A stretch of 64,000 nucleotides of DNA from Lama guanicoe. Its lineage: Eukaryota. A program made the translations under genes and the position numbers. Of this stretch, positions 32,234 through 63,625 are shown piece after piece. The stretch lies in assembly GCA_013239625.1 (NCBI GenBank), contig MU053933.1:3712470-3776469 (forward strand), written 5' to 3'. Position 1 is the first letter of the stretch, and every line of letters starts with the position of its first letter. The notes under the pieces were generated by a model that saw only the letters and a program-made list of their open reading frames with translations, did not search any database and was not told where the DNA came from.

Positions 32234-32397
32234 TAAGGGAGAGCACAAATGCCATCCACCACTACCACAAATTATGCAGTCGATTTTCTGACATTTGGAG
32301 AAATCTCAGGGGTCAGCATATCCGAGGTGCAATGGATAAGCCTCTCCCTGGGAAAACCACCTTCATGATCATGGTATCTCCCCTGCCAGGTAAGTAT
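32234..32397 (-). pseudogene. U1 snRNA retropseudogene, full length (164 nt)
   Basis: Minus strand ATACTTACCTGGCAGGGGAGATACCATGATCATGAAGGTGGTTTTCCCAGGG...AATTTGTGG (Sm site)...CTCTCCCTTA. A-rich tail and ~15-bp TSD taatgtcttattatt (32199-32213) / tgatgtctcattatt (32400-32414). Confidence 0.93.
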
Positions 32398-34663
32398 GAT
32401 GATGTCTCATTATTAATGTAGAAAGACAACTGATTTTTGTCTGTTGATTTTGTTCCTTGTAGCTGTACTAAAATCAATCATCAGTTCTAACAGGTTTTTG
32501 ATGATTTGTTATGGAAAACTAGAAATCAGAAATCACCCTGTTTGGACTCCATCCAGGTCATCCACAGCATCCAAGACACAGTATCTCCTAATCTTCCTAC
32601 AGTGCCTCTAAATTACCTGTGGACTCCTACAAGGGTGGTTATCATCAGAACTTTGGGTGAACTGAATCTAGTTAAGGGTTGGTCTCTATAAGGAAATCTG
32701 ATGTCTTCTCTGCTTTTTCAACACAGTGTTGACAATGGTTGTTTTGAAAAGTAATTTATTTTCTAGTAATTTCAAACATATAAAAAACTTTTAATAGTAT
32801 TACAAAGTACTCATATTTACCACCTGACAAAATGCTCTAAAACTGGGATACTCTCAGGGAACCAGCACATAAACCCCAAATGAAGAAATTTTATGGTTCC
32901 ACGTTGTAATCCCATCCACAGGCCCACTTCAACCTTCCCCATTGCCCCAACTTAGGGAAATGTATTTTTCCATTCTGATCTAGTTTTCTTTTTCTGAAAC
33001 TATTATTGAGATTTCCCTCTTTTTCAAAATCTTAATGGATTTGAAGTGCGTAAGATGAGTTTGATCTTGACCTCTTCTGTGTGGCTTCTTTCATTTAGAA
33101 TGTTTTCAGTGTTCAACCAGGATGTAACATGTATCATTAGTATTTCATTCACATTTTTCATTGTTATTAAAAATACAGAACATAATGTTACCTTTTAAAC
33201 CATTTAAATACACAGTCCTAAGGTATTAACTAAATTCACACTGTTGTACAGATACTTCACTGTCCATCTCCAGAACTTCATCATTTCCCCCAAGGGAAAC
33301 ACGGTATCCAGTAAGCACTAACTTCCTTCAGCTCCTTGCAATGACATTGTTTCTATCTCTGCATTTGACATCTGGATACCTGGTATAAGTGGAATCACAT
33401 ATTTGTCCTTCTTTGTCTGGCTTATTTGACTTAGCATAGTGACTTCAAGAATTATTCACGTTGCAGCATGTGTCATAATTTCCTTAGTTTTTAAGGCTGT
33501 GTAGTTTCCCATTGTGTATACACCACATTTAGTTTAACCATTCATTTGTTGATGGACAGCTGAGTTGATTCCAACTTTTGCTGTTGTGATTAGTGCTGCT
33601 ATGAATATGGTTGAACACCAGTCCCTGCTTTCAAATATTTTGTATATATATATACACTGAAGTGGAATTTTTGGATCACATGTTAACCCCATGTTTAAGT
33701 TTTTGAGGAACTCCCATGTGGTTCTCCACTGTGACTGCACCATTTTATTCCTTTATATGGCAGAATCATAGAGCGGTTTATGGATATACTGTTTGTTAAT
33801 CTATTTAGCCTTTGATGGACATTTCAATTGTTCTGCTTTTTGGGCCATTGTGAATAGTGCTGCTATGAATATTTGCAAACAATTTTTTTGTTTGTTTGAA
33901 CACCTGTTTTTAATGCTTTGTGTTCTATGTCTAGGAGTGAAATTGTTGAACCATAAGGTAACTGCATTTTTATCTTTTTGAGGAAATGACAAACTACATA
34001 TAAGCTGTACCATTGTCAACTTTTTCAAGTAATGTTTAAAGGTTTCCATTTCCCTCCATTTTTACCAATATTGGTTGTTTTTAATTTTTTTGATTGTACA
34101 GCTTCTAGTGTGCTTGAAAAGGTACAGCATTATGGTATTAATTTGCATTTCCATCATGACTGATTTTTTAACGTCTTTTCATGTGCCTGTTGACTATTTG
34201 TCTTGTTCAGAGAAGGGTGTATTTAATTTTTTTTTAAAAAAATCTAATTTTATTTATTTTTGCTGTTTTTTTTCAGTTTTATTAGGTAGAATTATTACAG
34301 TTTGACCACACACATATACATTATATTACCTGTAAATATATATAGAAATATACTGCACATTTTTTTTCAAAGAAGGGTCTATGTAAGTCCTTTTACTATC
34401 TTAAAAATTGGATTTTGTGTTTTTATGAGTTGTAAAAGTTCTTGATAAAAATTTTTTTAGGTATGCAATGTGCAAATATTTTATTTGATTTTTGTTTGTG
34501 GTCATTTCACTTTCTGGATAGCGTCTGATGTACAAAGTTTTTAATTTTGAGGAAAGGCAATTTAGTTTTTTCTTTCCTTGCTTGTGTTTGCTTTCAGATC
34601 TAAAAAAATTGCTAAATCCAAGGTCATGATGACTTATCCTCTCTGTTTCTTTGAGAGTTTATA

Positions 34664-35003
34664 CAGCTTCCCTCCCTATCTGTGAGGTATTGGTTCCAGG
34701 ACACCCTGTGGATACTAAAATCTGTGAGTTCTCAAATCTGTTATATAAAATAGTGTAGTATTTGCAAATAATCTAATCACATCTCCCTGTATACTTTAAA
34801 TCACCTCTAGATCAGTTATAAAACCTAATACAATGTAAGTGATATGTAAGTAATTGTGAAGAAAATGAAATATTATTTAAATCATTTCTGGCATGCAACA
34901 AATTCAAGTTTTTCTTTGTGGAACTTTCTCCAATTATTATTATTATTTTTATCTGAAGGTGGCTGATTCTGCAAATGTGGATTCAGCAGATGAGGGCTGA
35001 TTG
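34664..35003. mobile_element. MER2/MER2B (Tigger-family) DNA transposon
   Basis: ta|cagcttccctccctatctgtgaggtattggttccaggacaccctgtggatactaaaatc...tactttaaatcacctctagat...gagggctgattg. Paralogous copy at 54776-55115. Confidence 0.85.
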
Positions 35004-36917
35004 TTGCTTTACCTGTCTTTAAATTTAAGCTTTTTATGTACCTTGAGTTAATTTTGTATGTGGTGTGAAGCAACGATCCAATTTCATTTCTCTTAGAAAT
35101 GAAAAATTTTCGTTGGATAAACAATTGCCTGGCACCATTCCCCCCTCCCCCAATTTAATGCTGCCCAGTGTTGTAAAAAAAAATCAGTTAGTGCATGTGT
35201 CTTTTCACATTTGAGTGTTGCTCTGGATACATGCCCAGCAGTGGGATCTCAGACCTTTCTTGCTTCTGACCTAAACAGGAGGAGGTCACTATGTGGAACC
35301 TACATTTCAGGAGATGGGGGTTTATCTCCACCTCCTTGGTGGATGCCATTGATTATTAGGAATTCTCCTGCATAGGAGTTTTCTATTCAATTCCATTTAT
35401 TTAAAAAAACAAAACAACAACAATAACAATAACAAAAACCCTATGTCATCATTTAACTTCACCACTGTGGGCACATGGATAGTTATTTTAATCTTTGATT
35501 AGAATCCAGCAATGCAGAATTTGGTTGCTCTGTCTATTCCTGCTTTGGATATTGAGACCTCTTTTCATTGGCTCCTGTTTCCTTTGAGATCATTCTATAT
35601 TTTGGTCCCCCCCCCCGGTACTTCCTTATATTCTGATACAAGTTTCAAGATTATTCTGAATCATATATTTACTGTCTCACTTCTAGTATAAGCCATCTCT
35701 TCAAAGAGTCCTGGTTCCTTTAATTAGAGAATGGTATTAAGAACTTACATATGGGAGGAAAATGTCCTCAGCCAACAATGCAAGGAAATGTATGCCTGTT
35801 TTCCCGCCTACATGTATTGTTGCTCAGGGAGCAACTCCATGCCCCTTCCCTCAAATCTACCACAACTACATAGTGATTGTTTAAAATTTAAGTTACTTAG
35901 AAAATGGCCAAAGGAAGAGGGACACTCTGACTCCCACTCTATCTCTCTAAAAGCAGGAAATAAATCTGTCACTTGAAAGGTTCAGAAGCCCACATAAACA
36001 TAACTTGTTACTTCTTTAACTTACCACCCCCAAGCCCAAACTCTATTAAGATTCTTCATTAATTGAGTACCCAAAAGCTACATTCCTTTGGGCTGTCAAT
36101 TCATAACAAATCAATAATTTTCTAGATGTATAAAATCTGCCTGGTTTTACTACTTACTTCCTATTTCTATGAGACTTTTGTGTATAGGAATTAAAAATTT
36201 TTTTTCTCCTGTGGCTCTCTTGTGTTTGTTTTACTATCAGTCCAGCCACAAGAAGTGAAATTTCTCCCTCCCCAATAGAATACACTCCTAATTATAAAGA
36301 TTTCTATGTGGAAATGTTTGTATTCATATTAAGCTGAAGACGAGTGTATGCTGATGCCTCCAGCCTGATCCATTATCACATGGACAGTGTACATCTCCCC
36401 CTGCTTATCCATAACTCCCAGTTAGACAGTGAGGATCCTCATTCCCACCATCTTCCATCCATTCAATTCATTTCTCATTCTACTCCAGATGAATGGTTTC
36501 AGCATTCTTAGCTCCCACCCTTGTGCAATGGAACTTTATAGATTCTGTGCAGTATGTTTTCCCTTTAGTCTACACATTCTGTTCATTACCACAGTTACTG
36601 AGGCTGGCAACTTTTGCTCCACCAGTGTCAGTGAGTGCTTCCATACCTTTCTAATACAGATTCTTTTTTACATCCTGTATTCTATCCTGTGACACTACCA
36701 CTTACTCGATCACTTAATTGACTCATTGGGCCATAGAAAACTATGGGTTTTGATAAGTGGATATTGGCAGATGTACATCACTCAAGTATTACATGGAATA
36801 TTTCAAAACTCTCACATGATCTGTTTACCACCTCTTAGTTTTCCCTGTTCCTGAATTTCATATAAATTGGGTTATACAATGCATATGTAGACTCTTCAGA
36901 TTGGATTCTGTCACTTA

Positions 36918-38096
36918 TGAAAGGAAAATCAACATGGAGTTGATATTGATAAGAGAGCTATGTAAAATGGAGTGAGGAGCCCATTTAGTATGAATGAATG
37001 AAAGTCTAAGTTTTGACCTGATGAAATCATCCAAAATATCTGCCAGAAACTTATCTATCTGCCAGTAACCTATCTACTTATTGTATTCTTAGCTTAAAAT
37101 AATTCATGACAGTCTGTCTATGTATTGGACACTTACCCTAAATTAACTCATGATTCCTTAAGGACAAATATTTTTGGACTCACATCAGAGTCCATCACAA
37201 TTATGGCCAGTGAACTTTTAACAACCTCCTGGACTTTTGTCTTTATAAGCCTCTGTACTCTTATTCTTATCTGGAACACTCTTTAAGGGTTACCTGAATC
37301 TGTACTGGGAAACAAGCTGATGGAAAACAAACCACTGGATAACAAGCAGCTAATAAATAAGCCACACCTAGATTTCAATGAGCTTAAAACATTGTATTCA
37401 CACTTGCTTGCTTAAAATGCACATGCTTGATTTGTTTTAATGTTTTATGCAGTAGATGGCCTATAGCACATACTATGCTAAAGAAAATTTGTGGTGAGCA
37501 ATCCTGAGATTGACCATAAGGGCATGAAAGAAGGCATATGTTTCCTCAGGGTAAACAATGGATGGTCCTGGAAAGCCAGGTCATCCAGTAACAGAACTTT
37601 GTTCTGGCATGAAAGCATGCTGTTTAACCTGAGGGAAATATTTTCTATCTCAAGATGGCCTGGAGACAATCACAGGGTAGGCTCATAAATCTCATATACC
37701 CTGAGAAGGGTGATTGTTCCTGGAGGGGATAGGCTTGTACTTAATCAATCACTTAGCAAGCAGAACTTAGTGCTTATCACATGGAATATCTAAAGCCTCA
37801 CCTCTTTGATCACAATTTTTTTTTGAAGCTGTATACTCCTAATAAATATAATGTCAACCAGGCTTTTGGCACTCTCGATCCACGAGATCTTGAGTCCCCT
37901 GGTCCCATCTTTTCTTTGTACTTTGTCTCTTTGTTTCTTAAGTCTTGCATGGCCTGTCCTCAGACACAGTCCTGAGCTGCACTGGATGCAGCAAATCTGT
38001 GTCTTCCAAATGCAATTCTTAATTCATCACCCAAATAAACATTTTCCTATTTGCAGTTTCCTACATTATTATTACTATTATTATTTTGTTTGCACA
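36918..38096 (+). mobile_element. Solo ERV LTR with a nested second LTR
   Basis: TG...CA with TSD ctta (36914-36917 / 38097-38100), inserted in an antisense L1. Its 5' part recurs at 57011-57225. Confidence 0.75.
37301..37993 (+). mobile_element. Nested solo ERV LTR (693 bp)
   Basis: tgtactggg...gcagca with perfect TSD aatc (37297-37300 / 37994-37997). AATAAA at ~37841. Confidence 0.8.
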
Positions 38097-40814
38097 CTTA
38101 GCATTATATGTGTAAGATTCTTCTATATCTTTGCATAGATTGGTAGTTCATTTCTTTCCACTGGTAAATAGTATTCCATTGCATGTGTATGAAAGAAAAA
38201 ATAATTTTTCCTCTACCCTTCTAGGATCTTGATTGATATCTCCTCTGTGATAAAAGATTAAGAAGAGAAAAACAAAGAAGTTTAATAATGTGTATACCTC
38301 CTGTACTCTTGAGAGATACCAAGGAACACTGAATCGCTTCCAGAAATGGCCAAAGCCATCACCTTAAATAGCATGTTTAGCTAAAAGCAAAAGAAAGACT
38401 TGAGGAAGGGAGGAAGCCAGTTATGCCAGGGTGTCATGCAAAGCACAGTAAACATGATATGGTTGATACTTAGATTTCAGACAAGACTTTTCCATTGATA
38501 AGAGTTACCTGAGGTTTAATTACCCTCCTATGTCTGGTACAAAAAGAGGAACACACCCTTACAAATGGAGAATCCTGTAAGAAATGAAAATGTTTCTCAC
38601 AAAAGGGCAACCTATGCTGTATTTTCTGAGAGTCTTTAAAAAAATTAATCAGACTGAAACAGTCATTAGGCTACAGACCTATTTTGGGGGTGGCATATTC
38701 TGTTCTCCTTGACATGAGTGTGCACTGTGTTTTGCAAGTACTTCCTCCCAGTTTGTGGTTTGTCTTTTGGCTTTCTGAGTAATGTCTTTCACAGAATAGA
38801 AGTGTATGTTTACAAAGTCCATGTTATTAATTTTTTGTGTTATTTTATAGATAGTCATTTGGTGTCTTGTGTTAAAATGCATCACCAGGCCCAAGGCTTT
38901 ATAGGATTTCTCCCATTTCCTTTAAAAATTTTTATAGTTTTGTCATTTAAGTTTCTCTATGGGCAATTTTGAGTGAATTTTACTATTGCTCATGAAGTTT
39001 GTGTCTATGTTCTCTTCATTCTGTATGTTTTAAAATTAATTGTTCCTTAACCATTTTTTTGAGACAACATAATGAGATATATGGCTCTGTTTCAGCTTGG
39101 ATTTCCAAAGGTACTACATAGAGCAGAACCACTTCCCAGATGAGGTCTCTAGGTTTTGTGAGCTTAGCGTTCCCCGAACTTCTCTGATGACCCACAGCAA
39201 GGCGCCAAATCCACCTCTCAGACCCACGGGCACAAGTGTATTCTGCCCACGGACCTGGCCCTTTGCACAGCTGGCAGAGGCTTGGTCTCCTCAGGACTGT
39301 CAGGGCTTTGGCTTCTAGACAATGGGGTTATGTCCATGTGGTCATGGGCTGAATTTTCTTGGGCATCACTAGTGAGGAGGAGCTGCAATAGGAAAGGAAA
39401 AGGACAAAGTGAGGAGAAGCTTCCTGTGTGCAGTTGACTGCTCAGGGAAGTTCTGTCTTCAAAGGAACCTCAGAACGAAGTTGATGAGGGAAACTGTGGG
39501 GTTTTAGTTTTAGTTAGTTTTGTGTGCAGTGTAGATTGTGACCAGTGATGTTCTTTGGTGCATAGTGTCCCATTTTCCTAGCACTGTTTATTTAGGAGAC
39601 TGTCCCTCCCTCTTTGTATGTCATTGGCCCAATTCTCATGAATTAACTGACCACAGCCATGTGGGTTTATTTTTGGGCTCTGTATGCTGTTCCTCTAGTC
39701 CGTGTGTCTGTGTATATGACAATTCCTCACTATTGTGGTCACTACAGCTCTGTGATACAGTTTGATTCTAGGGAGTGAGATGCCTGCAGCTGTGTCCTTC
39801 TTTCTCCAAACCTCTTTGGCTGTTCAGGGTCCTTAGTTGTTCTATATTAATATTAGGGTTGTTATTTCTATTTCAATGAAACATATCATTGAATATTATA
39901 TTGATGTTGCAGTGAATTTGTTGATAGCTTTGGTTAGAATCAATATGTTAGTAATTCTTCCAATCCAAGAGTACAGAATATTTTTCCATTTATTTGTGTC
40001 TTCTTTAATTTCTTGTTTAATGACTTACAGTTTTTTGAGTACCAGTCTTTCACATCATTGGTTAAATTTGTTCCTGGATATTTTGTTCTTTTTGATGCAA
40101 TTATAAATGTGATTGTTTCCTTAAATTTTATTTCTGATGGTTCACTATTAGTGTATAGAAATGGAACTGATTTTTGTACATTGACTTCATATTGAACTTT
40201 ACTGATTTTATTTATTTTACAAACTCTTTGTAAAGTGTTGTGGAAAATTGTAATTTTAATATCTCAATGTTTCTCTTGTATTGCAGGTCATCCACACGAC
40301 CCAAGGCCTGATGGCTACTAGTATACTCATCCCACAGTACCTCTTAATAACAAGTGAACTCCTACAAGGGCGATTAGCATCACAACCTTAGTTGACCTTG
40401 GTCTGGATAAGTCTTGGCCTCTATATCAAAGTTTGATGTCTATTTTATCCACTCTTCTGGCATGGTATTGATATGGTTGTTTCAAACTGTAATGGACTTT
40501 CCAGTAATTTCTGTAATGATAAAAAGTACTCACAGTACTATTTGACACAAAGTATTGTAGGGTGTTTTACCCCAAACAGGGACATTCTCCTGAGGAACCA
40601 TCATGTGACTCGTAAAAGAGGAAGTCATATGGTTTCCACATTATTATTTAGTCCTCAGGCCCACTTCAACTTTCAGCAGTTGGTCAAATGGCATGTTTTC
40701 TTTTTCTGGAATTGTTACTGAGACTTTCTCTCATTTTGACAATCTTGATGGATTTAAAGCATGCATGATGACCATGTGATCTGGGAGAACTTTTCTTTAT
40801 GACTTTTTTTTTCA

Positions 40815-41395
40815 GCAATGTGTATTCAAAGCCTTAAAAATGTGCATACTTTTCACTCAGTAATTTCACTTCCAGGAATCTGTCCTAAAGAAATAATAAA
40901 AGTTCTGCAGTGAATTAAGAGAATCAGGACTCTATGTACTTTAAATTATATATATATATATATATATATAATCTATATGTAATCTTTATAGAAAATTTAA
41001 ATATAAAGATGTTATTCACAACATTGTTTACTCTAGAAAAAAAGTTGGAAATAACCCAGAAAGGACATTGGTTAGACAAATTATGGTTTACATGTAGGCA
41101 ATATGTGTATTATGTAGGAATACAATGTAGCCATTTCAAAAATAAGTTTTCTAAAAATGTAAATGACATGAGAAAACAGTTACAATACACTGTTAGGCTG
41201 AAGGGGGAAAGCAGGCTATAGGGTAATACATCTATAACATATGACCCTGATTCTGTAAAACATGACATCTGCATATATACCTGCAAATAAAGGGCAGGAG
41301 GACTGAACAGTAGCTCATCTTTAGATGTGAGAATTACCCCCTTTTGTGTCTGTTATGGGTTCTACATTTTCTACAATGGCAATGTATTTGTTTAG
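40815..41395 (+). mobile_element. L1ME-type 3' end containing a (TA)n microsatellite (~40947-40970)
   Basis: ttcactcagtaatttcacttccaggaatctgtcctaaagaaataat...aagatgttattcacaacattgttt...ttttctacaatggcaatgtatt. Confidence 0.7.
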
Positions 41396-42424
41396 AGTCC
41401 AGAAAAGCCTCAAACATTATCTAAACAGAGCAGCAAGAACTGGATTAAAATTTTCATTAGTGTTATTCTCCCCCAAACACAATGGACACAACAAACCCTG
41501 GAAGTTTAAACATAGACCTCAGTCACTGTCGGGAGCATCATGACAAGGGCCACAAGATGAGAATAACATAGGATGGAGAAAGCTTGGCCTGGAGAAGGCA
41601 TTGGATGGACTTTGAAGGAGCGGGTCATCAGGGTAGGGCAGATTCTTAGAGAAACATTTAAGGTGAGGGAAGCCACATAACCAGAGGCCCAGAGGTCAAA
41701 GAGGACATGGATGAGACCTGAGTGGTAAAGAGACCAGGACAACAGGGACCTTGTTTAATGCAGGGGCCTCTAGCCAGAGGTTGGAGGCTCAGGGTATAGC
41801 ACACTGCTCTACCTAGGATAACTCTATTCCCTTAGACTTTTTCAGGCATATGCAGATGCTGGCAGGACTGACTAAATACTAATGTAGTTAAAATCATTGC
41901 AGAGTTCACAATGGCACTGTGTAGCTTTCTATCTTCTCCTCAAATGACCAGTCTTCTCCAATTACTCTGCCCCATGTAGGACACCCACCCCCAAGCACTG
42001 GCCTTCCTGTTGTCCCTCTGATGGGCCAATACTTGTTCCCCTTGACCTGAAACATGCTCCCCCAGATATCTGCACAGCCCCTCCCCACTGTAGGTCCTAT
42101 GGGAAGAGAGGCAGAAGTCAAAGTGTGTGAAGTGAGAGCTCGGAGGCCAGAAGTGCATGCTGCTGGCTGGGGGTGGGACTGAGGAACCACAGGTATTTCA
42201 GCAGAAATGTCTCGGGAAGAGTAAGGGGCTACAGGATGGGGGAGGGCCACCAGGTCCAGACAATGTCTCCAGGGCTTTGGGAACTGAGCAGCTGTGGCAG
42301 ACAGCTAATGCAAAAGTTCTGAGGATCAGAGGCGATTTTCAGACCCAATAAATATCCTGAAAGAACACAGAGCCCTGATCTGCTCTGCTTAACTCTTACA
42401 GCTGTGGGTGCCCTGCAGTTTAAA

Positions 42425-42600
42425 AGTACTTTCACCTTCATTACCTCATGTGGTCCTGGGAGGTAAGCAGAAATAGGCAGTGGCCATTTTACAGAGGAAA
42501 TAACTGAGGATCAGAAAAGTTAAATAATTTGCCTGAAAGCTCAAAAGGGTCGGTGGCTGACTAGCTGGACTCAGCTCCCCAGCCCCATTTTCTCCACATA
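42425..42600 (-). mobile_element. MIR SINE
   Basis: ccattttacagaggaaataactgaggatcagaaaagttaaataatttgcctgaaagctc is the MIR core. Confidence 0.8.
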
Positions 42601-42813
42601 CGAACCCAGGTGTTTTGGCACTACACTTAGACTGAATAAAGACATCCCTGTCATAAAGCTTTGCCTCCTGTATTTTGACAACAGCAACCCTGTAGGGATG
42701 GACTCCATGGCTGCAAGTATCAACTCAGGGCATCAGCGGGAGGGCATGTACAGAGGGAAGAGCCACATGGACCCTCTGTACAGATGGTAAGGGAAGCCCT
42801 GTTGTCTGAAAGG

Positions 42814-42835
42814 GTGTGTGTGTGTGTGTGTGTGT
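42814..42835. repeat. (GT)n microsatellite
   Basis: gtgtgtgtgtgtgtgtgtgtgt. Confidence 0.9.
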
Positions 42836-43899
42836 CTCTAATCAGCCAGCCCAGCAGGGTCCAGGTTGCTGTGGCCTTCCAGGGGTGCTCTCAAATTCAA
42901 CTAAAGCTCTGGCTGTGCCACTGCCTCCAGGGGGCCATTCACTGCATCTGAACTTGACCCAGGTTCAGGGAGTGGAGGAGGTGGGGCAGCCTGAGGCAAA
43001 CTGCTAGGCCACCAGAACACCCACAGCCCCCAGTCCCTGAGGAGAGGCAAAGGCAAAAGACAGACCCTTACTCTCCAGCCCTAACAGTCCACACGCTGCC
43101 GACAGTCCAGACTGCAGGAAAGGACCTGGTGAGGGCGCTTCCTCCAGGGCTGTCCCTTGGCAGTTGTGCATCTGGTCAGGCAGCTGCAAGCCACACATGG
43201 CCAGTGAGCACAGGGGTATGGCCAGTGGGACTCAGCAATAGTGTGTGACGTTAATACGATCCAACTGACACTTAGAAGTGAGTGGCCACTAGGAAAGGGC
43301 AGCAGGAGGTCCCCTTATGATAGAAGCATTCTATCTGGTGACTGTGGTGGTGAGCCCAGGGATGTGCACGCGACAAAAGTGCAAGACCTGAAAACACCCC
43401 CCCCCCCGCGAACGACTCCAGCGAGGTCCTGGATGTGACACTGTGATACAAGGTGCTACCTTTGGGGGCGTTTCCGTATTCTTTCTCACAACTGCTTGTT
43501 AATCTGTGATGGTCTCAAAATAAAAAGTTAAAATAAAATGAGACACCGACCGTGCTCAATGGGTACTGCAGTGGCCAGCGAGCTCTAAAAGCCACATTCT
43601 CACTGAGCTAAAGAAATGTCGCCCACTCATGCTCGTTGTCTCTTCCCCTCACACACCACACAGCAGGCACCTGTAACTTGGGGGCGTGGGGGCGCTCCGG
43701 GGCTAAAAGAGGGGTGAGTGCAGGGCGAGGGTCACAGAATTAGCATTCGGAGAAATTAGATATGAGGGGTTAAAAAAAAAAGACATAAAATGGTGAGGAA
43801 ATTCCTCAACTCAACTATACTGGGGTTTCTGCAAAGAACCTCCCCCATCCTCGGAGGAAGCCCTGGAAATACTAAACCAAAGGACCCCCGCTTGGCCGG

Positions 43900-45480
43900 T
43901 AGGGCAATCTAGGCAGGAGGGCCTCTGGACTCATCTTCCCAGAGACCCGGCCAGGGCACACCCACTCCAAGACCCAAGTGTGCATGGAGTTGGAGGTCAG
44001 AGCCCACTCTCCGGTCTGGCTCCTCTCCCACCACTCGTGCGCCTCTGTCTTGCTTTACTGGGGCGGGGGTGGTGGGGAGGAGGGCGCAGAGAGAAAGGGC
44101 CAGAGCGGGCTCCCTGGCAACAGTCAGCTTGAGTGCCCCCTCCTCCAGGACCCTGAACAACTGCAGCTCCTCCTCTGCCGCGGGGCCCACCACCGGGACT
44201 CTCGCAGACAAAAGCGTCTGCGGTGAAGAAGCCACCGCCGCAAAGGGCAGAAGCGCCAGATCCTATCAGCCAATTACCTAAACGCGTAGCTACCCGCAAG
44301 TTCGAGCACGCTTGGGCCAGGGCGCGGGCAGCGGGAGGGGCCGCCAGTCAGGTGCGCCCGTGGAATCTGGGCCTGCGGCGCACCGTGAGGCTCAGGGCGG
44401 TACGCAGGGCGGGCCTGGGGCTGAGGTCTGGGCTAGGGGCTGGGGACCCGCGCGTCTCGTCTCCCCCTCGCCGGTTGCGAGGCTCCTCCGCAGCGACGGA
44501 GGCTGCGCGGTCAGGGCACTCCCTCGGCCAGGGCTCCTGAGGCCCTTCCACGGCCCCAGATCCGAACAGCCCCCGGGTCGCCCTGGAAACGTCGCCCCTC
44601 CACCGTGCGGCGCGCAGGGTCGCCTCTGGCTTGTGGAGCAAAAGAACCTCTCCCACGAAGGGTCCGGCGGCCGCGCGGCCCTCTGAGCGCCGGGGCTGCA
44701 GCTGGATCCTATGGGGCTGCCGGGCTCTGTGTGCGCGCAGGGGCGGGAAGGACCGCCGGACCCCTGCACATCCCGTGGACAGTGCCGCGCTCCAAAGCTG
44801 TCGCCCACGCCGGTCCCTCTCGCACCGCCGAATCCCCTGCGGGGCGCAGACCGCCGGTCCCCGGCTCATCTTGCTCTTGACTTCCACCGCGCTGCAGTCG
44901 TAGAAGCGCAGGATCTGAGACTTGTGGAAATTCCGGTTCACGGTTCCCGCCCCGCTCAGCCTCGTCTGCGCCCTCGCTTCTCCCTATGGGGGCTGCAGAA
45001 GGACCCTGGGTGCGGCACCTCCCGCCACGGCCCCGGCCCCGGCTCGCTCGCCACCGGGCTACTTGAGTGCAGCGGCCCGAGCTGGGCTGGCCGCTCGCCT
45101 TGGGTACTCAAGGGGCTGCATGCTGGAGGAGTTGGGGGCGCCAGCGCGCGCCGCCCCGAGGACCCGTCCCCCGAGCCCCACGAGCCCGCCTCACATCCTT
45201 AAGATCCATTCCTCCAGCTTCGAGGATCCGCCCCGTGTCCCGAGTACTCACCCCACGCCTCGCCGACCTGGCCCCCGAGCTCTGCGGACCCGGTTCCCCA
45301 GATCACGCCGCCATTCCCTGCCCGGCGCCTTGAGGACCCTCCCGCGGACCCGCCCCCGAAGACTCGGCTAGGTGCGCGCTTCTGTGTGCAAAAATCCCAG
45401 AGCCCGGAAGTGAAGCACCGCTGACCTGCCTGGGACGCTTCATTCCCACCTTGGCGCCCGCACTTTTTCTCCCTTGCTCG
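43900..45480. promoter_or_regulatory. CpG island (PARD6G-derived promoter/exon 1/intron 1 start)
   Basis: Very GC- and CpG-rich, with GC boxes and an ETS motif CCGGAAGTG at 45404-45412. Confidence 0.9.
44870..44941 (-). pseudogene. PARD6G: Orphan copy of PARD6G coding exon 1 with mutated start codon and splice donor
   Basis: Reads (GTG)[23 protein letters not shown] vs human PARD6G N-terminus [24 protein letters not shown] as recalled. Start context is ACCGTG, and the donor position reads AAG|ATGAGC instead of GT. No exon 2 (FGAEFRRF...) was seen in the window. Confidence 0.88.
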
Positions 45481-46760
45481 CTCGTGCCGAGATTTTGTTT
45501 GCCTCCACCCCTTGCCAGGGAAGGGACCTGATTTTGGCTGATTTTTAACTTTGTCTTAGATGATAAGGGAATCACCGGAGGCCTGACCCCCTTGGGCCCA
45601 CCTGTCCGTACAGCTGCCAGCTGGTAGATGGTCTGGGCAAAGGTTCTGCAGGGAGGCAAACCCCTAGGACATAGTTCAGCACAGGTAAAAGTAAAAGGGT
45701 CAGAAGCACCTCTAGGCCTGTCTGATGAGAAGGAAGACTTCTGCTGAGGCTGGTAGAGAAAGGAGTATGTTAGCAACAAGGCTTCAGCTGTTAGCAGTGT
45801 CGTCAGTGCTTACCATCTAGAGAGCTCTGGGAGCGGGGCTGCCAAAACCCAAATTCTCGCCCCTGAGGAATTTGTGAAGAACCTAAGAACCCAGGACAAA
45901 TAGGGGTTTTAAAAGTATTGCAAAGTGCATCGTACAAATTTACAATGCAGCTTTAGTTGACTATATTATTTTTCCTAGTGTAAATTCGTAGGACTAAAAG
46001 GAAGAAATACAAACATGCTAATTTAACTATTATACATATAGAGGAGAGTATTAAATTAAATTAAATTAGTGATTTTAAATGTAATCAAGAACAAAATTTA
46101 AAAAAAAGAACAAACTTAGAACAAAAGTATAACCTAGTTTTTCAGAAGATTTTGTATATATATAAAACAAAACTAATACAAACATGTTGTGAAATACTTA
46201 CTAAATTCTACAGACAGAAAAAATAACGTAAGATACAGGAACTGAGAATATATATACCTGTGTATAAATATAAATATATATACACATATATATAAATGTG
46301 AATGAGATAAAACTCACCTATTTTAGGACTTTCACATTTGATCACTAAGTAATACTCAGCTAAAAACAGTAAATAAGAGACAAGTACAACAAAGTGACAT
46401 AGAAAGGATGAAATTTAAAATATCAGTAAAGGGAGAAAGCAGCGGTTTCCATTTTAAGATTATGTTGCTTTAGGGACAAAGGGATTAAATAAGGTAAAGA
46501 AAGGGCCTTCACAATGGAAAATGGTATGCCAGCATGAAGATCTAATTAATACACATGAGCACTGCACAGATCAGCATTCACAAAATAAAATGGCAGGAAA
46601 TAGGAAGTGTACCTTTGTTAAAATGCACCGTAATAGGTAAAGGACAGAAAACTCAGTTACTTGAACTTATATAACTACTGAACTCTGTGCCTGAATGCAG
46701 ACAACGGTCCTTTTCAAATTCTCTGGAACATCCACAAAATGACTGTGTATTAGGACATGT

Positions 46761-46982
46761 TAGGACAGGGCCATACACTATGGTACGTGTGCCTAATCAG
46801 TCTGCTGCTTGATTTTGTAAATAAAGTATTACTGGAACACTTTACTGCTCATTCCCTCATGTCTGTGGCTGGCGTTGTTCTTCAGCTGCAAATCTGAATA
46901 CTTGGGAGGGAGACTGTACAAATCACAAACTCAAAAACGTGTGTTATCTTGCCCAACTATACAACAAATTTGCTGATTTCTT
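46761..46982. mobile_element. MER58A-like hAT-Charlie DNA transposon
   Basis: ttttgtaaataaagtattactggaacac...gagactgtac...aatttgctgatttctt. Confidence 0.75.
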
Positions 46983-47042
46983 AATTAGTTCATGAGCAGT
47001 AATAACCCCAAAGTATAAAGAGAGTATAGATATATATGCATA

Positions 47043-47585
47043 TGTATTGAGGTGAGAAGCCCCTTTGAAAGACTGGCAGGAGCCCCAAGCAGGGCCACTA
47101 CTCTACTGCCAGCATGATCCGGTTCCCTGGCCCAGAGGCTCTATCTCACTTTTTGCCTCTGAAATGGCTTACTTACCCCTAAAATTCTATTGGTTCCCTG
47201 AGCTCACTCCTGATTGGTTATTTCCTTCACTCCTGATTGGTTCATTTCCCTAGCTTCTGATTGGTCCATTTGTAGTACTTCATTTGCATGGAGCTCACTC
47301 CTGATTGTTTATTTCTCTCACTCCTGATTGGGCCATTTTTACAAAGCTTGTTCCTAATTAGTCAACTTTAGTTATACCTCATTTGCACATGATGTTGCAA
47401 AGTGTAAACTGGCAGCCTATAAAAGCCGGTGTAAACCTACAGCCATGGTCCAGAGCTTGGAGTGTTAACTCCTTTGGGCCTGCTGGCATGATAAACCTGA
47501 GGACTCCAGCTCTCTGAGTACTGCTTGGTCTGTGGCAGGGATCCAGGTTGCTGTCACAACTGAGCTGTAACACTAAGGTGTAACA
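47043..47585 (+). mobile_element. Solo ERV LTR with tandem CCAAT boxes and TATA box
   Basis: TG...gtaaca with possible TSD cata/catt. Five ATTGG in repeated ctcctgattgg units (47188-47331). TATAAAA at ~47418. Confidence 0.75.
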
Positions 47586-49096
47586 CATTTTTCCACAGCA
47601 GTATGTGTATATAAACAGATTTGATATATATGTGATCACAATGTATTAAAAGTAGAAATGTAAGAAAATATTAGAAAATAACCACCACAACAAAAATCCT
47701 TAATACCCGGAAGCTAATTTTATGAACTCAAACTGTTACAAAAATACACATGATAATAAAATATCTAAAGTAATAATGAAAAACCATAGATTGGAGTGTA
47801 TATGATATAGTTAAGTAGTGCTCAGAGGAAAATTTTATAGCCATAAGTAATTATGCTAATGAATATGTGAGAATGAAGATAAATGAATTAAAGATCAAAA
47901 ATCAAAAATTTAAAACAATAACAAAATGGTAGGATGGGAGGTAGAAAAGTTGAATTAGGAAATGAATAACAATCCATAAAGAAATCCAGAAGGTGGCCGT
48001 TTGAAGAAAACCAAGTATTAGATAACAAATTAAGAAGTATTATAAAGTATACTATAAATAATTTATGTTATGTGGTTATAAATGTATTATAAATTCATCA
48101 TAAGAGGAAAATCTGGAGAATACAAAGACATGAAGGGAAAAAGTCAAAGTCACCCACAATTGTACTGCTCAGCAATCAAGTTTGTTATGGTTTTGGTATA
48201 TTGTACCTCTGTTGCTTTTTCTGCATATGTATTTACATACTTTACAAAATCATTATCATGCAGTTTAGCCAGTTTTGTAGCCTTTTTTTTAAAACTTGAT
48301 GTTGTATAAAAATATTTTCATTAAATATTCTTAGAAAGTATGGTTTTTATAGCTGCACATACGAATATAGGTATAATTTTTAATCATTTCATCATTGGAT
48401 ATTTAGGATGTTTCTAATGTTCAGGGTTTATTTAATACTGTGTTTCTGGAGTTCACTTATTTATGATTAATTCATAGAATCAACTCCTAAAAATGGAATT
48501 ACTGGGTCATAAGTTACACATATGTCTACACCCTTCAATACAGATTGCCAAATTGCAGTTACCAAAATTTAAGTTTCATTTCCTCTTACTAAATGTGCTG
48601 TGATATGCCAGGGACTACAATCACAGAGGCACAGAGTTACAGTCCCTGTGCTTGAGAGAAATATCAGGCTGGCCAGGGTTCCAGGCCTGTAGACAGAGTT
48701 CCAGAGCAAGGCACAAGTGAACTTAGCAAGGAGACAAAAATGCCACCAGGTTCCCACAGAGTCAGAAGAAAAGTATCCTAGACAGAAGGTTGAGGATGTC
48801 CACTGGTCTGAAAGCTAGAAGGGACCTGGTATAGTTTGCCATCTATGCAGAATTTAATAAATTCCATGTCTGCTCTGTCCTGAGGAGGCCTCTGTTGCAT
48901 CAGGTAGAAGAAACAGGAGGTACCTGTGGAGTCAACCTCACACAGCACAGCAGCCAGCAACCAACTGCTGACCTGGTAGCTCTGGTGGGGTTCAGGGACC
49001 TGCAGCATCTCCTGGTTCTCACCTCATCCCAGCACTGCTCATGAGTTGCTGAACAGCAACTGTGCTGGCAGCAAAAAGAGAATGCTTGTTCACACA

Positions 49097-49216
49097 CCCC
49101 TCCCAGAGCATGGGGCTTAAGTGGGCAGGCCCCTCACAGGATATGGAGCTCACCTGGGCAGGCACCCAGCAGCCCCCGGGGCTCACATAGGCAGGCCCCT
49201 CCCAGGACATGGAGCC
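49097..49216. repeat. Degenerate ~33-bp minisatellite, ~3.5 copies
   Basis: catggggcttaagtgggcaggcccctcacagga / tatggagctcacctgggcaggcacccagcagccc / ccggggctcacataggcaggcccctcccagga / catggagcc. Confidence 0.7.
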
Positions 49217-51334
49217 AGCAGCCTAGCGAGGGTGCTGGGGACTCTCAGGGTCCCAAGCTCCAGCCAAAGTGAGGAAATCTTTGGGGAATTACAGGTGGGA
49301 GAGAGTCATGGTCTCGTTTCTGGTTCATGAAGTCTACATTGGGACAGGATGTGAGATGCACCATTGGGGCAGAAGCTTTGTCAGGGCCTGATGGAGGAGC
49401 TGGGGGCAAGATCGGGTTGGGCCACCATCAAGCCTGTGGCTGTAGAGTGGCATTATTGTGGGGACTGGCTGTAGACTCCAGAGGAGGAACTGACAGTCAC
49501 TGGGGCACAAGGAAAGTGGGGGACTGGGAGGCCCCTGGTGTCTGGGCTTAGCAACCAGGGGAAGTGGGGCTGCCTCCTAGGGTGTGAGGAGCAGCAGGAT
49601 CACAGTTTTGTGAGGGACCTGTTACCCCTAAGGTGAGAGGGGGATGCAGGGTTTGGAGAGATGTGCCTGACCTGGGGGATGGGTCCAGGGAGAAAGGAGA
49701 GAGCCCAGGTGGGGGCAGGTGAGTTACAGCAGACTCCATGCAGGGGAGTGTGGTCCTGATGGAAACAGCTCAGAGCCAGAGAGGATTGGCTGTCAGGTGC
49801 TCAGCTTCACTCTCCTGTTCCTTTGTAAAGCCACTGTGTCATAGTTTGAAACACTGCCAGGGGACCCCTGAGTCCAGTTCTGCCCTGGCTTCATCCAAGG
49901 GGTTCAGGTGGAAAACAACCACTGCAGGTCCCACCCACATCCCCACAGGGAATGAACGCCATCAGGACACTGGGCTCACAGACTTCAGGAAACCATGGCC
50001 CTCAGGACTGATCTCTTCCTTGCTGTCACCTGCTGGTCAGAGGCCCAGATGACCCATCCTGGCTCCACCCTCTAGGGCCTGGATTCTGGGACAGCTTGTG
50101 GGTAGTGCAAGACCCTCACACTCCTTTATCTGCCTGATGGTGAGGATGTCTTAAAAGCTGCATGGTTGATTTTGGAGGTCTGAGTGTTTCCAGCAGGTAT
50201 GGGGGGAGGGGTGTGAGGTTCCTACATCGGTAGGGTTTTCCCAGGGTGAAGAGCTGTGCCTTCCCCTCCCAGTCCATTCCCCCCACCATCCATCCAGGAA
50301 GCTCATATACAGAAGTATGAGGGCCAAGGCTCTCCCCTTGCTTGTCTGTGACTTTCCATTCCCACAGCCAGGAGCCTGGCTCCCACCATCTGCCCTTTTT
50401 CAACCAAATTCTCTGTTGCAGGTTACATGCACAGTGGTTTCAGAATTGTTAACTACTATACCCCGGAAAGAACTTTATAATAGAAAGCCCACAGTTTAAC
50501 AATGGTCCATTCTGCCTTTGCAAAAGAAGTCTGTTCATTTCCAAAGTGACCTTAGGTTAACACCTGTTGCCCCACCATCAACTGTTTTTTCAACCTGTTT
50601 CTAATACATTTCATAGATTATGTGTCACACTGCGTATTCCATCCTGTGACACTGCTACACCCTAAACAACTAAGTTTGAATAGATTATGATTAACCTTTG
50701 GGCTGTACAAATGTGTGGGTGTAGACACACGCATAGGGACAGGTGTCCATCCTAAAGTATCGCATGGAACACTTCAGCCCCCCCACCCCCACCCCATGAT
50801 CTGCTCATGTATGTAGCTTTGCCTTTTCCATAATTGTCATCAATGGGGTCCTACTGTGTGCAGCCTCTTCAGACTGGATTCTTTCACTTAGTAACATACA
50901 GGTGAGACTTACTCGTGTCTTTCCGGGGGTTGATGGTTTGATGTCCATTGCTGAGCAGAATTCCATTGCGTGTGAATGGGAGGAAAATCAGTTTTTCCCT
51001 CTGTCATTCTAGGTTCTTGGATGAGACCTCCCAGCCCCTAATAAGACAGATTACTGGGAGAAAAACAAACAAGTTTAAAAACATGTATAACTCCTGTATA
51101 CAGGGGAGACACCCAGGAACACTGACTCCCTCCCTGAAATGGCCCAAAGCATCACCTTAAATATGACCTTCAGCTGGAAACAAAAGCAAGGCCTCGGGAA
51201 TGGAGGAAGTCATTTATGGCAGGTTACCACGAAAGCTCAGTAAATGAGAGTGTAAGGTTTAAAGTTTGTGTCTCCGTTCACTTCATTCCACATGGCTTCC
51301 AACTAATTGTTTCTTAAGTATTTGGAGAAGTTAC

Positions 51335-51775
51335 GGATATTTGGCTCTATTTCAGTTTGAATTTCCGGTTTAAAGGATTGAACAGAGCAGCTGTCGGGGC
51401 GGGGCCTCAGCTGGCTGTGAGGGCGGCTGGGCCCGTGCTTTCCTATTGGCTGGCAGGGCCCGGAGCCCGCCTCCCCCAGCTGCGGTGGGAACTCACGTGC
51501 ATTTTGCCGGAGGATTTGGCGTCCTGCGCAGCTGCCTGGAGCCACGTCTCCTCTGGATCTGCCAGGGCTTCTGGACAACAGGGGGTTATGTCCACACTGA
51601 CAGGAGCCCAGTCTACTCAGGACCCAACAGGAGGTGCTGCACTAAAGGGAAGGTGAGGAGGAAGGAAAAGTGAGGGAAAGTGAGGAGAAGCTTCCCGTGA
51701 GGGGCTGACGGCTGAGGGGAGGCCCTCCTCAGAGGCCCTGGGAGAGGAAGGGCTGTATGTGGGAAGCTGTGGGCT
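51335..51775 (+). promoter_or_regulatory. Candidate promoter/first-exon module (best-preserved of 5 copies: ~31015, ~39075, ~51335, ~57920, ~60975)
   Basis: GC box GGGGCGGGGC 51396-51405, ATTGG 51445-51449, CACGTG 51494-51499, donor-like AAG|GTGAGG at 51653. CpG-enriched relative to the L1 flanks. Confidence 0.4.
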
Positions 51776-54775
51776 TTAGTCAGGTTTTGTGGGTGGTGTA
51801 GAGAGTGTGCCATGTGCTTCTTTGGTGTGTGGTGTCTGGTTTTCCCAGCACCATTCATTGAGGGGACTGTCCTTCCCCCGGTGCAGGTTCCTGGGTCCTT
51901 TCTTGTGAATTAACTGACCACACACCTTTAGGTTTATTTGCAGACTCTCTCTGGTCCATTTCCCTGTCATTGTGCCAATTCCACACCTTTTTGGTGACTG
52001 TGCTTTTGTAATGCCATGTGAAGTCAGGGAAGGAGATGCCTCCAGCCTGTTTCCCTTTTGTAGACTCCCTCTGGCTGTTCAGGGTCCTTTGTGTTTCCAC
52101 ACGAATGTTAGGAATGTTTGTTCTGTTCCTGTGGAAAATGCCACTGAAGTTTATTTTATTTTATTGAAGTATAGTCAATTCACAATATTCTGTTATTTTC
52201 TGGTGTAGGGCATAGTGATTTGATGAGGCTTGCTTTGAGTTTGAGCACTGCTTTGGGTAGAATGGACATTTTAACAATGTTAATTCTTTCTGTCCATGAG
52301 CGAAGGGTATCTTTCCATTTATTTGCATCTGTTCAGTTTCCTTCCTCAGTGTCTCAGAATTTTCGGTGTGCAGGTCCTTTCACATCCTTGATTAAATGTA
52401 TTCCTAGGTATATTTTGGATGCAATTGTAAATGGGATTTTAAAAAATGTCTCTTTCTGATGTTTCATTATTAATGTATAGAAAGACAACTGACAATACAC
52501 AATTGTGTATTGATTTTGTACCTTGTAGCTTTACTGAAGTGATTCATTAGTTCTAAGAGTTTATGATGATTTGATGTGGAAAACTAGAAATCAGAAATCG
52601 CCCTGTTTGGACTCCATCCAGGTCATCCACAGCACCTAAGACACAGTGGCTCCTAATCTTCCCACAGTGCCTCTAAATTGCATGTGGACTCCTACAAGGG
52701 CGATGAGCATCAGCACTTTGGGTAAAGTGGTTCTCATTAAGGATTGGCCTCTATAAGGAAATCTGATATCTTCTTTGCTTTTTTGGTGTGGTGTAAACAT
52801 GGTTGTTTTCAAAAGTAATTTAGTTTCTAGTAAACTTTTCTTATAAAGTTCTGTATAAAATACTTTAAATAGCATTACCCAGTACTCACATTTGCCACCT
52901 CACATAAAATACTCCAGTGGGTTTTACCTAAAACTGGGATACTCCCCCAGGGAACCAGCACATAAACCCCAAATGAAGAAATTTTATGATTCACTTTGTA
53001 ACCCCATCCACAGGCCCACTTCAGCCTTCCCCATTGCTCCAACTTCTGGAAATCCTTTTTTCCCATTCTGTGCCAGTTTTCTTTTTCTGAAACTATTACT
53101 AAGAGTTTCCCTCTTTTTTTTTTTCCAGAATCTTAATGGATTTAAAGCACACAAGATGAATACGATCTGGGTGGCATCTTCTGTGTGTCTTCTTTCACTT
53201 AGACTGTTTTCAGTTTTCATCCAGTTTGAATCATTATTGATTCATTCACATTTTCATTGTCCTTAAAAATACAGAACATAACATTTACCATTTAAACCAT
53301 TTAACTATGCAGTTCTGTGGTATTAACTAAATTCATATTGTTGTACAGATACCTCACCATCCATCTCCAGAACTTACTCATTTTCCCCAAGTGAAGTCCT
53401 GTGTCCAGTGAACACTGACTCCCCTCAGCCCCTGGCAAGGACACTCTTTCTATCTCTTCATCTGACTTCTCTGGATGCCTTGTATAAGGGGAATCATATA
53501 TTTGTCCTTCTGCGTCTGGCTTATTTCACTTAGCATAGTGACTTCAAGATTTATTCACGTTGCAGCATGTGTCATGATTTCCTTAGTTTTTAAGGCTATG
53601 TAGTATCCCATTGTGTATACACCACATTTAGTTTATCCATTCATCTGTTGATGGACAGTTGAGTTATTTCCACGTTTTGCTGTTGTGATTAGTTCTGCCA
53701 TGGGTATGGGTGTACCCGTTTCTATTCCAGTTCCTGCTTTCAAATATTTTGAACATATATCCTGAAGTGGAATTGATGGGTCACATGTCAACCCCATGTG
53801 TAAGTTTTTGAGGAACTCCCATATGGTTCTCCACCATGGCTGCACCATTTCATTCCTTCATGGCAGAATCGTAGAGCAGCTTATGGATGTACCCTGTTTG
53901 TTTATCTGTTTAGCCTTTGATAGACATTTCAGTTGTTCTACCTTTTGGGCCATTGCGAATGGTGCTGCTATGAATATTTGTGTACCTTTTTTTTTGTTTG
54001 TTTGAACACCTATTTTTAATGTTTTGGGGTCTATGTCTAGGAGTGAAGTTGTTGATCCATACAGTAACTGTATTTTTTATCTTTTTGAGGAAGTGACAAA
54101 CTGGAAACATGGGCTGCACCATTTTCCAATTTTTCAAGTAATGTTTAAAAGTTTCAGCTTCTCTACATTTTTGCCAATATTTGTTGTTTTTAGTTTTCTT
54201 GATTGTAGAGCTTCTAGTGTGCTTGGGAGGGATGGCATTATGGTATTAATTTACATTTCTATCATGACTGATTTTTAACATCTTTTCATGTGTTCATTGA
54301 CTACTTGTTTTGTCTGGAGAAGGGTCCATTTAAAAAAAAATTAATTTTATTTATTTATTGGTGTTTTTCTTTTTCATTTTTATTAGGTAGAACTATTACT
54401 GTTTGACTGCATGTATACATTATATTGCATGTAAATACATATATACAATATACTATACATTTTAAAAAAAATTTACATATTGAGGAGGGTCTATTTAAGT
54501 TCTTTCTACCATGTTAAAAAATGAGTTTGTTTTTTCTGAGTTGTAAAAGTTCTTGATAAAAATTTTTTTCAAATATAATGTGCAAATATTTTCTTTGATT
54601 TTGTGTGCTGTCCTTTCAGTTTCTGGATAGCATCTTTGATGTACAAATGTGTTTAATTTTCAGGAAAAGCAATTAATTATTTTCTTTTCTTGCTTATGTT
54701 TGCTATCAGATCTAAAAAAATTGCTAAATCCAAGGTCATGATGACTTATCCCCATTGTTTCTTTGAGAGTTTATA

Positions 54776-55115
54776 CAGCTTCCCTCCCTATCTGTGAGGT
54801 ATTGGTTCCAGGACACCCTGTGGATACTAAATATCTGTTGGTGCTGAAATCCATTATATAAAATGGTGTAGTATTGACAAATAATCTAAGCACAGCTTCC
54901 TGTATACTTAAAATCATCTCTAGATCACTTATAATAAATAATGCAATGTAAATGGTATGTAAGTAATTGTGAGGAAAACATAATGTTATTTAAATTGTTT
55001 CTGGCATGCCACAAATTCAAGTTTTTCTTTATGGAACTTTCTCAAATTATTATTATTCTTTTATCTGAAGGTGACTGATTCTGCAAATGTGGAATCAGCA
55101 GATGAGGGCTGGTTG
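54776..55115. mobile_element. MER2/MER2B copy in block A'
   Basis: Same sequence and same insertion site as 34664-35003. Confidence 0.85.
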
Positions 55116-63549: not shown

Positions 63550-63567
63550 GATATATATATATTATAT

Positions 63568-63598
<31 letters not shown>
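63550..63598. repeat. Imperfect (TA)n microsatellite
   Basis: atatatatatattatatatatatatataatatatatatatatatata. Confidence 0.9.
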
Positions 63599-63625
63599 GA
63601 GGGAAGTTGCTGAACCAAGTGATAG

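Follow-up and report, generated by a model that had tools for sequence, protein, structure and literature searches.

A dead duplicate of the PARD6G 5' end, shared with Camelus, on a guanaco contig that carries a PRMT gene

What does the first coding exon of PARD6G, parted from the rest of its gene, represent on a Lama guanicoe contig that also carries a PRMT gene, and by which route did it get there? The window, i.e. the whole stretch of 64,000 nucleotides analysed here (assembly GCA_013239625.1, contig MU053933.1), allows us to state with high confidence that this is a dead duplicate, that the intact gene lies elsewhere and that the relic is shared with Camelus. The features of the relic are as follows:

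40806..44280, minus strand: presumed further part of PARD6G intron 1, from its position
44097..45564, unstranded: CpG island (1468 bp, GC 0.687, CpG observed/expected 0.82)
44281..44863, minus strand: copied beginning of PARD6G intron 1, from the translations of P0251 and P0252
44864..44869, minus strand: former splice donor, now AT; in Camelus ferus the ortholog still reads Val at this point, i.e. GT
44870..44941, minus strand: dead copy of PARD6G coding exon 1, with GTG as start and the changes S4N and T10I
44942..45103, minus strand: copy of the PARD6G 5' leader and proximal promoter, from read-throughs of the Met-bearing loci P0253, P0032 and P0014
45252..45367, minus strand: middle exon of LOC116664062 of C. 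ferus, an automatic three-exon model whose four splice sites are canonical in the window
45565..50280, unstranded: upstream flank of the relic, in which 49043-49144 is linked to the relic by the C. ferus model (31/34 residues)

The exon at 44870-44941 encodes 24 residues on the minus strand, 21 of which are identical to the N-terminal 24 residues of all seven named camelid PARD6G records, against a best match of 8/24 elsewhere in the window and of 7-12 in 30 shuffles. We examined 145 homologous proteins and compared the 115 with a 24-residue first exon, the other 30 being excluded for different first-exon lengths. Codon 1, GTG in the relic, encodes Met in 114 of the 115, and residue 4, Asn in the relic, is Ser in 113 and Asn in none. 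The first-pass annotation had described a near-perfect PARD6G exon 1 in a CpG island; the identity of the exon and the island stand, but the GTG start and the AT donor make the copy less than near-perfect. That the downstream PARD6G exons are missing, as was also claimed, is borne out by tblastn of seven full-length PARD6G proteins against the window, which returned the exon-1 match only (E about 2e-8 for the Met-start proteins; E of at least 0.015 for all remaining matches). Exons 2-3, encoding the PB1 and PDZ domains, are absent from the 44.8 kb downstream in the window, where the PRMT gene lies further on. The relic is not a functional PARD6G, as it lacks the ATG, the GT donor and exons 2-3, and it produces no Par6 protein. 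The 24-residue exon has no match in the PDB, its DNA pattern has no match in metagenome contigs, a protein scan of metagenome contigs gave 28 loci, none of which resembles the window, and a literature search found no paper mentioning this PARD6G relic.

The match to Met-bearing loci takes in the exon, its 5' leader and the initial 0.6 kb of intron 1, in agreement with the earlier proposal that the 5' end of PARD6G was duplicated at the DNA level. In translation, the leader copy matches P0253 over 13/13 and 45/56 residues, and the intron copy matches the gray whale model P0251 over 39/54 residues and P0252 over 21/29, 44/58, 25/34 and 29/38 residues. This homology to intact loci covers 44281-45103 only, i.e. 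0.8 of about 9.5 kb, and is seen via translations only. The relic differs from the nearest intron read-throughs (P0252-P0254) by about 9-13%, similar to the whale model, in segments picked between frameshifts, so that the similarity is biased upward. A retrocopy origin was considered and ruled out because intron 1 follows the exon. The locus shows the disabling changes and the homology to its parent, including intron and upstream DNA, that define a non-processed pseudogene fragment, and camelid records supply the intact parent elsewhere.

Full-length PARD6G records exist for alpaca, dromedary, Bactrian and wild camel, and the contigs that encode the intact camelid proteins are no longer than 27.9, 30.2 and 38.0 Mb. 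The second, intact locus that the first-pass annotation had anticipated is thus found in camelid records on another, smaller sequence, that of C. ferus being at most 30 Mb; the argument from separate contigs presumes that both C. ferus records belong to one assembly. The relic itself has an ortholog in C. ferus, on a contig of 122,453,268 bases and colinear over 5 kb, where the predicted protein XP_032337170.1 follows the window at 49144-49043, 45364-45251 and 44890-44277, with 261/276 residues identical. The copy is therefore likely to be older than the split between camels and llamas. The reading frame of this model, LOC116664062, is interrupted in the window by a stop and a shift and is not kept upstream. 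An unnamed Camelus-type gene model, P0129, carries a relic-type exon (Val start, Ile10) spliced to real exons 2-3; this exon matches the window over 36/38 residues, and its divergence of about 2.4% compares with 2.5% for the C. ferus ortholog. Between 0.78 and 0.82 of the sequence words of 41300-45600 are contained in 14 DNA runs among the 24 listed, which span four organism labels and six studies and of which one may be the source sample.

The surroundings of the relic are dominated by an old array, which, with the resident genes, is laid out as follows:

661..1482, plus strand: the two final coding exons of a PRMT gene, from Pfam
7244..8173, minus strand: intact vomeronasal type-1 receptor (V1R) gene, a resident neighbour, from Pfam
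28470..29116, unstranded: LTR-like element, labelled by eye, at the left end of block A; candidate inter-chromosomal junction
29117..40809, plus strand: block A, comprising array unit U1 and the truncated unit U2, cut on the left at the LTR-like element
40800..40813, unstranded: breakpoint where U2 ends at a T run and the relic block starts, from the comparison of A with A'
50280..64000, plus strand: block A' (U3 and U4) and the older unit U5, from comparison of the units

The PRMT gene, which we take to be PRMT2, shows its C-terminal exon at about 661-832 on the plus strand (Pfam PRMT_C, E 1e-12). The exon of PARD6G had been placed next to PRMT2; the two are in fact 43 kb apart, separated by the intact V1R gene, a V1R scrap, L1 sequence and array units. 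The V1R protein has an exact match on a contig of 124,690,746 bases. Pfam searches of 150 of the 157 open frames in the non-L1 regions gave solely V1R and PRMT_C above the cut-off, and an Rfam search of 42600-64000 gave no matches. Pfam matches to PCSK9_C3 (E 0.006) and PAP2 (E 0.002) fell below the cut-off and were taken as chance. The GT repeat reported beside the relic is present near 42814-42836. For the putative L1ME that the first-pass annotation placed here beside a putative MIR, comparison of 40806-41400 with the young L1 of the window gave no signal, 40806-41100 scoring 36 against top values of 37-41 for shuffles. The 64-kb window contains no TTAGGG array; one short, worn TTAGGG-like tract lies at 6445-6500 in the opposite sense, and there are no internal TTAGGG-like islands, which are common in subtelomeric duplicons and not required of them, at 29117, 40806 or 50300.

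The array comprises five tandem units, is interrupted by the relic and resumes beyond the upstream flank of the relic. Identity between block A (29117-40809) and A' (50437-59654) is 80-82% (K2P 0.17-0.20); U1/U3 and U2/U4 are 85% identical, and other pairs of units 61-69%. The similarity had been described as stopping abruptly at ~40805, and the match does end sharply at 40806-40809 while A' continues. On the left, array sequence in A' exceeds that in A by about 100-160 bases, and the right edge of the relic block is therefore at about 50280-50330 and not at 50437 as previously given. Nothing in the remainder of U4 matches this extra left-hand piece, which indicates that A is the truncated copy. 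No target-site duplication of 4-6 bp was found at the LTR-like element that cuts A at 29117.

We tentatively propose a two-step route, a possibility that falls somewhat short of probable, in which a tandem duplication at the PARD6G end was followed by transfer to the PRMT2 chromosome before the camel-llama split. Part of intron 1, exon 1 and 5.4 kb of upstream DNA, reaching into the neighbouring array, would have been duplicated in tandem, with 40806 as the seam, so that the relic came to lie between A and A'. The DNA distal to about 29.1 kb would then have been copied onto the PRMT2/V1R chromosome by an exchange of chromosome ends, and the inter-chromosomal junction could accordingly lie near 29.1 kb rather than at 40805, a placement that we advance with similar caution. 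The ATG and Thr10 would have been lost before the split and the donor and Ser4 later, in the lineage of the window; these changes are differences in the sequence, and the Camelus records suggest their order alone. The end of A at 40809 while A' runs on, the return of the array right after the flank of the relic, the truncation of A and the lack of a target-site duplication at the element cutting it count for this route, and the joining of a relic-type exon to real exons 2-3 in P0129 would follow from a cis copy upstream of the working gene. Against it, P0129 may be an assembly chimera, the missing target-site duplication may simply have decayed, and an array upstream of intact PARD6G stands as a prediction of the route. 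To the left of A, 20500-29116 shows no remnant of a first relic, an absence that the route has to explain by its second event, the transfer.

The first-pass annotation had the PARD6G end moving from 40805 outward. The duplicate and the other intact locus are upheld, but 40805 need not be the inter-chromosomal junction; tandem duplication and transfer fit at least as well, since the array broken at 40806 resumes past the relic and A is cut at 29117. With the junction at 40806, the PARD6G tip (relic, A' and U5) would have replaced the PRMT2 tip, and A would stem from an older exchange. The break is sharp and non-homologous, and the strands in the window fit the telomeric polarity that we presume from the human order of PRMT2 and PARD6G. 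Human PARD6G is called subtelomeric in passages of PMC6468625 and PMC6557208, tip translocation is a known mechanism in the part of PMC2323237 that treats it, and PMC6371769 assigns HSA18 material to two further camel chromosomes (24 and 30). However, this reading demands two transfers from the same donor end, the second breaking inside the earlier copy, and leaves P0129 as an artefact; we consider it rather unlikely. An interstitial duplicative transposition, in which a 9.5-kb piece of the PARD6G 5' region entered the PRMT2/V1R region's own array, with a deletion at the site and no exchange of tips, appears rather improbable too. The same array family on both sides and the lack of telomeric repeats at either boundary speak for it, whereas its two ends show no target-site duplication (only one 8-base chance match), the extra deletion has to be added, and the truncated left end of A and P0129 go unexplained. 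Mis-assembly, i.e. a false join of the PRMT2 chromosome with either the true 5' end of PARD6G or a stray contig, has next to no chance of being correct. The flanks are rich in repeats and P0129 is at least one camel gene model that mixes relic and parent, but the inactivating changes of the exon are absent from all seven named camelid PARD6G proteins, and the contig that bears the relic in the independent C. ferus assembly (122.5 Mb) is comparable in size to the 124.7-Mb contig with the V1R protein, which makes mis-assembly unlikely.

The remaining alternative concerns function. The island at 44097-45564 has CpG-island composition and is by far the longest in the window. Comparison with the Camelus orthologs gives no excess of CpG transitions within it (1/130 against 9/410), so that it likely stays unmethylated in the germ line, and it may give low-level non-coding transcripts. 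GC-rich promoter copies and islands can remain unmethylated without selection or function. Six runs that are RNA-labelled or possibly RNA contain 0.05-0.18 of the words of 41300-45600, a range that is not evidence of expression. It is very unlikely that the island has been kept by selection, whether to drive a new, spliced non-coding RNA or to serve PARD6G in cis as an alternative first exon. The lack of CpG hypermutability and the canonical splice sites of the three-exon model would agree with it; yet at 2.5% divergence the chance that all eight splice bases survive is about four in five, automatic models choose canonical sites, the frame of the model is broken in the window, and unmethylated islands need no function. 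That the dead promoter was re-used, staying unmethylated for more than 11 million years and giving a spliced non-coding RNA from the PRMT2 chromosome, with a cis copy upstream of PARD6G in camels, whose splice donor is intact, serving as an alternative first exon for an N-terminally altered Par6-gamma as in P0129, is a long shot.

As a dead duplicate, the relic belongs to an ordinary and well-described class, and its weight is modest: with it, exchange between two camelid chromosomes can be dated, and it serves as a natural experiment, on a small scale, on the length of time for which a copied promoter island withstands methylation after the loss of its gene. It is also an annotation trap, having given rise to one spurious 'uncharacterized protein' in C. 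ferus and, probably, to a chimeric model of PARD6G, P0129.

This C. ferus entry, RefSeq LOC116664062 (XP_032337170.1), is the same orthologous DNA, at the 261 of 276 identical translated residues given above, annotated as an unknown protein instead of a PARD6G relic; its donor is intact in C. ferus, and its frame does not persist in the window. Like other non-processed (duplicated) pseudogene fragments, the relic combines an exon with intron and promoter, inactivating changes and an intact parent elsewhere; it differs in that its CpG island persists and in that only the first exon was copied, which left it unable to code from birth. Orphan CpG islands were reportedly described by Illingworth et al. 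2010. They are treated as proto-promoters in the pertinent part of PMC4772013, and the relic resembles them as an island that has no annotated coding gene and might promote new transcription, but this putative promoter is traceable to that of a duplicated gene. Subtelomeric duplicons arise by tip translocation with orientation kept, according to the part of Ambrosini et al. 2007 (PMC2323237) that concerns their origin. The relic differs from those described there in being camelid and older, its array copies being 80-85% identical against a cut-off of 90% in the human study, in having boundaries free of internal TTAGGG islands and in its putative terminal position. It is like them in that an intron-bearing gene piece is shared between chromosomes within a mosaic of older duplications, and in an orientation that is consistent with having been kept relative to the telomere.

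The block running from about 40806 to 50280-50330 carries a real, old and dead duplicate of the PARD6G promoter and first exon (hereafter the relic). On the minus strand, 44870-44941 encodes 21 of the 24 first-exon residues of the named camelid PARD6G proteins (7/7 records), against at most 8/24 for the best match elsewhere in the window and 7-12 in shuffles (n = 30). A CpG island of 1468 bases (observed/expected 0.82) surrounds the exon. The first-pass annotation had called this exon near-perfect; its identity and its island stand, but the description fails on a GTG start codon and an AT splice donor. The absence of downstream PARD6G exons is borne out within the 64-kb window, with seven full-length PARD6G proteins as queries. 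We examined 145 homologs and counted the 115 with a 24-residue first exon: Met begins 114 of these, residue 4 (Asn in the relic) is Ser in 113 and Asn in none, and the relic's Ile at residue 10 is found in three, all canids. The GTG start, the AT donor and the changes at residues 4 and 10 show that the exon copy is dead. Ile10 in canid PARD6G (P0003-P0005) is identical to the camelid relic change, and is probably convergent.

Comparison of a 211-residue frame through the exon with 1.84 billion protein representatives gave nine matches. Eight of them come from other loci and translate PARD6G exon 1 and intron 1 or the sequence around them. In one, a gray whale model reading into intron 1, 39/54 residues agree at 44632-44471. 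One unnamed translation matches 44825-44281 across frameshifts; because the exon is absent from it, we only infer its origin from an intact locus. Another spans the leader to 45103; its start codon encodes Met and its exon is followed by Val, which means a GT donor at that locus. From these matches, which cover 0.8 kb of the roughly 9.5 kb block, 44281-45103 reads as a colinear copy that takes in the leader, exon 1 and the beginning of intron 1. The earlier proposal of PARD6G intron 1 sequence from 40806 thus holds on the 44281-44863 side, where intron-1 translations match, the comparison having reached 44281 only.

The best of the nine matches is XP_032337170.1, a three-exon automatic model of Camelus ferus (LOC116664062) on a 122,453,268-base contig, whose colinear segments in the window are 49144-49043, 45364-45251 and 44890-44277 and which differs at 15/276 translated residues. 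In alpaca, wild and domestic Bactrian camel and dromedary, the contigs that carry an intact PARD6G protein measure no more than 38.0, 30.2 and 27.9 Mb. The predicted second, intact locus therefore exists in camelid records, and in C. ferus it is on a different chromosome from the relic if both records come from one assembly. PMC6371769 gives camel chromosomes 24 and 30 as the counterparts of HSA18. We are highly confident of the core of this reading, i.e. a dead duplicate common to Camelus, with the intact gene elsewhere.

Because Val still follows the exon in the C. ferus copy, loss of the donor came later, within the lineage of the window. P0129, an unnamed protein with Camelus-type residues in exons 2-3, has the Val start and Ile10 of the relic, but Ser4. 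Judged from these sequences, both the copy and its ATG loss are likely older than the divergence of Old World camels from those of the New World, placed at 11-25 million years ago in PMC4884201. Over 273 codons compared with XP_032337170.1 and P0129, the 14 differences comprise CpG transitions at 1/130 opportunities, other transitions at 9/410 and four transversions. Since about 23 CpG transitions would be expected under methylation (assuming an eightfold CpG rate), the island has likely been unmethylated in the germ line throughout, an indirect indication that does not imply function.

The window is mammalian and, judged by the nearest records, camelid; the 15/276 residue differences from C. 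ferus, together with four organism labels in which 41300-45600 is about equally present, suggest a New World camelid. Its first feature is a PRMT gene (Pfam PRMT_C), which we take to be PRMT2 and of which the two final coding exons are present. An intact vomeronasal type-1 receptor (V1R) gene follows at 7244-8173 (minus strand); its exact protein is recorded on a 124,690,746-base contig and is the only member of its 90% cluster, and no Camelus ortholog was found among 103 matches. A cattle V1R (79% identical) is on a 158.5 Mb contig, presumably the size of the cattle chromosome carrying PRMT2, so the gene is probably an old neighbour of PRMT2. A V1R scrap of ~90 bases at about 24909-25002, 81% identical to the gene and lying amid L1 pieces, suggests that resident DNA extends to at least 25 kb. 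Other elements of the window are as follows.

6445-6530: short and worn CCCTAA-like tract, whose sense is opposite to that of a right-hand telomere
about 14000-20410, plus strand: long L1, fairly young, its ORF2 broken and a poly(A) tail present
about 47050-47590: solo LTR-like element with 24-base repeats
49097-49215: minisatellite with a 33-base unit, located where the C. ferus model has its first exon

The relic is flanked by blocks A (29117-40809; unit U1 and truncated U2) and A' (50437-59654; U3 and U4). Their reading as merely two L1 copies was rejected, as both belong to a five-unit head-to-tail array (U1-U5) with heads near 31.2, 39.2, 51.4, 58.0 and 61.0 kb. Identity is 85% for U1/U3 and U2/U4 and 61-69% for the remaining pairs; K2P between A and A' is 0.17-0.20. 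By eye, the unit heads (29117-64000) resemble decayed promoters, with CCAAT/GC boxes and then a GT donor-like site; Pfam and Rfam (the latter over 42600-64000) gave no match for the units. The relic breaks U2 at 40806, and array DNA is found again from about 50280-50330. The left edge of A (29117) is cut by an LTR-like element, at which no target-site duplication was found, ~100-160 bases inside the array start point seen in A'; the rest of U4 lacks the ~100-160-base piece that starts the array in A'. No relic-like DNA was found left of A (20500-29116), and no telomeric array within the 64-kb window.

We tentatively favour a route in which a unit comprising the intron-1 tail, exon 1, upstream DNA and the array up to U2 would have been tandemly duplicated upstream of the working PARD6G gene, the distal part then being copied onto the chromosome of PRMT2, where the junction would lie near 29.1 kb. 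Such a duplication leaves the order A, relic, A', and with that junction the truncated A and the absent first relic copy would follow. P0129, a Camelus-type PARD6G model, opens with the relic exon in place of the real one, spliced to real exons 2-3, which requires one scaffold for both; it may be an assembly chimera, or it would be explained by a cis copy upstream of the working gene. The first-pass annotation instead had the tip of the PARD6G chromosome, from intron 1 outward, replace that of the PRMT2 chromosome at ~40805; U2 is indeed interrupted at 40806, but plain tip replacement would not by itself lead one to expect a single array flanking the relic left and right, and we consider it unlikely. 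Interstitial insertion of a PARD6G piece into the array is likewise doubtful.

Re-use of the island under selection is improbable: all four splice sites of the three-exon C. ferus model are canonical in the window, but its eight splice bases would be kept by chance about four times in five at the observed divergence, and lack of CpG decay is no proof of function. Orphan CpG islands can serve as proto-promoters (PMC4772013). Mis-assembly is very improbable given the colinear C. ferus ortholog and the presence of 41300-45600, at 0.78-0.82, in 14 of the 24 listed runs (six studies; four organism labels about equal).

A search of the literature on PARD6G, PRMT2, camels and subtelomeres found no publication on this locus. 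Human PARD6G is termed subtelomeric in PMC6468625 and PMC6557208, and subtelomeric duplicons of this sort are attributed to chromosome-tip translocation with orientation kept (PMC2323237). The relic appears to work like such a duplicon and is a candidate member of that class; it belongs to the non-processed pseudogene fragments, three defining features of which it shows.
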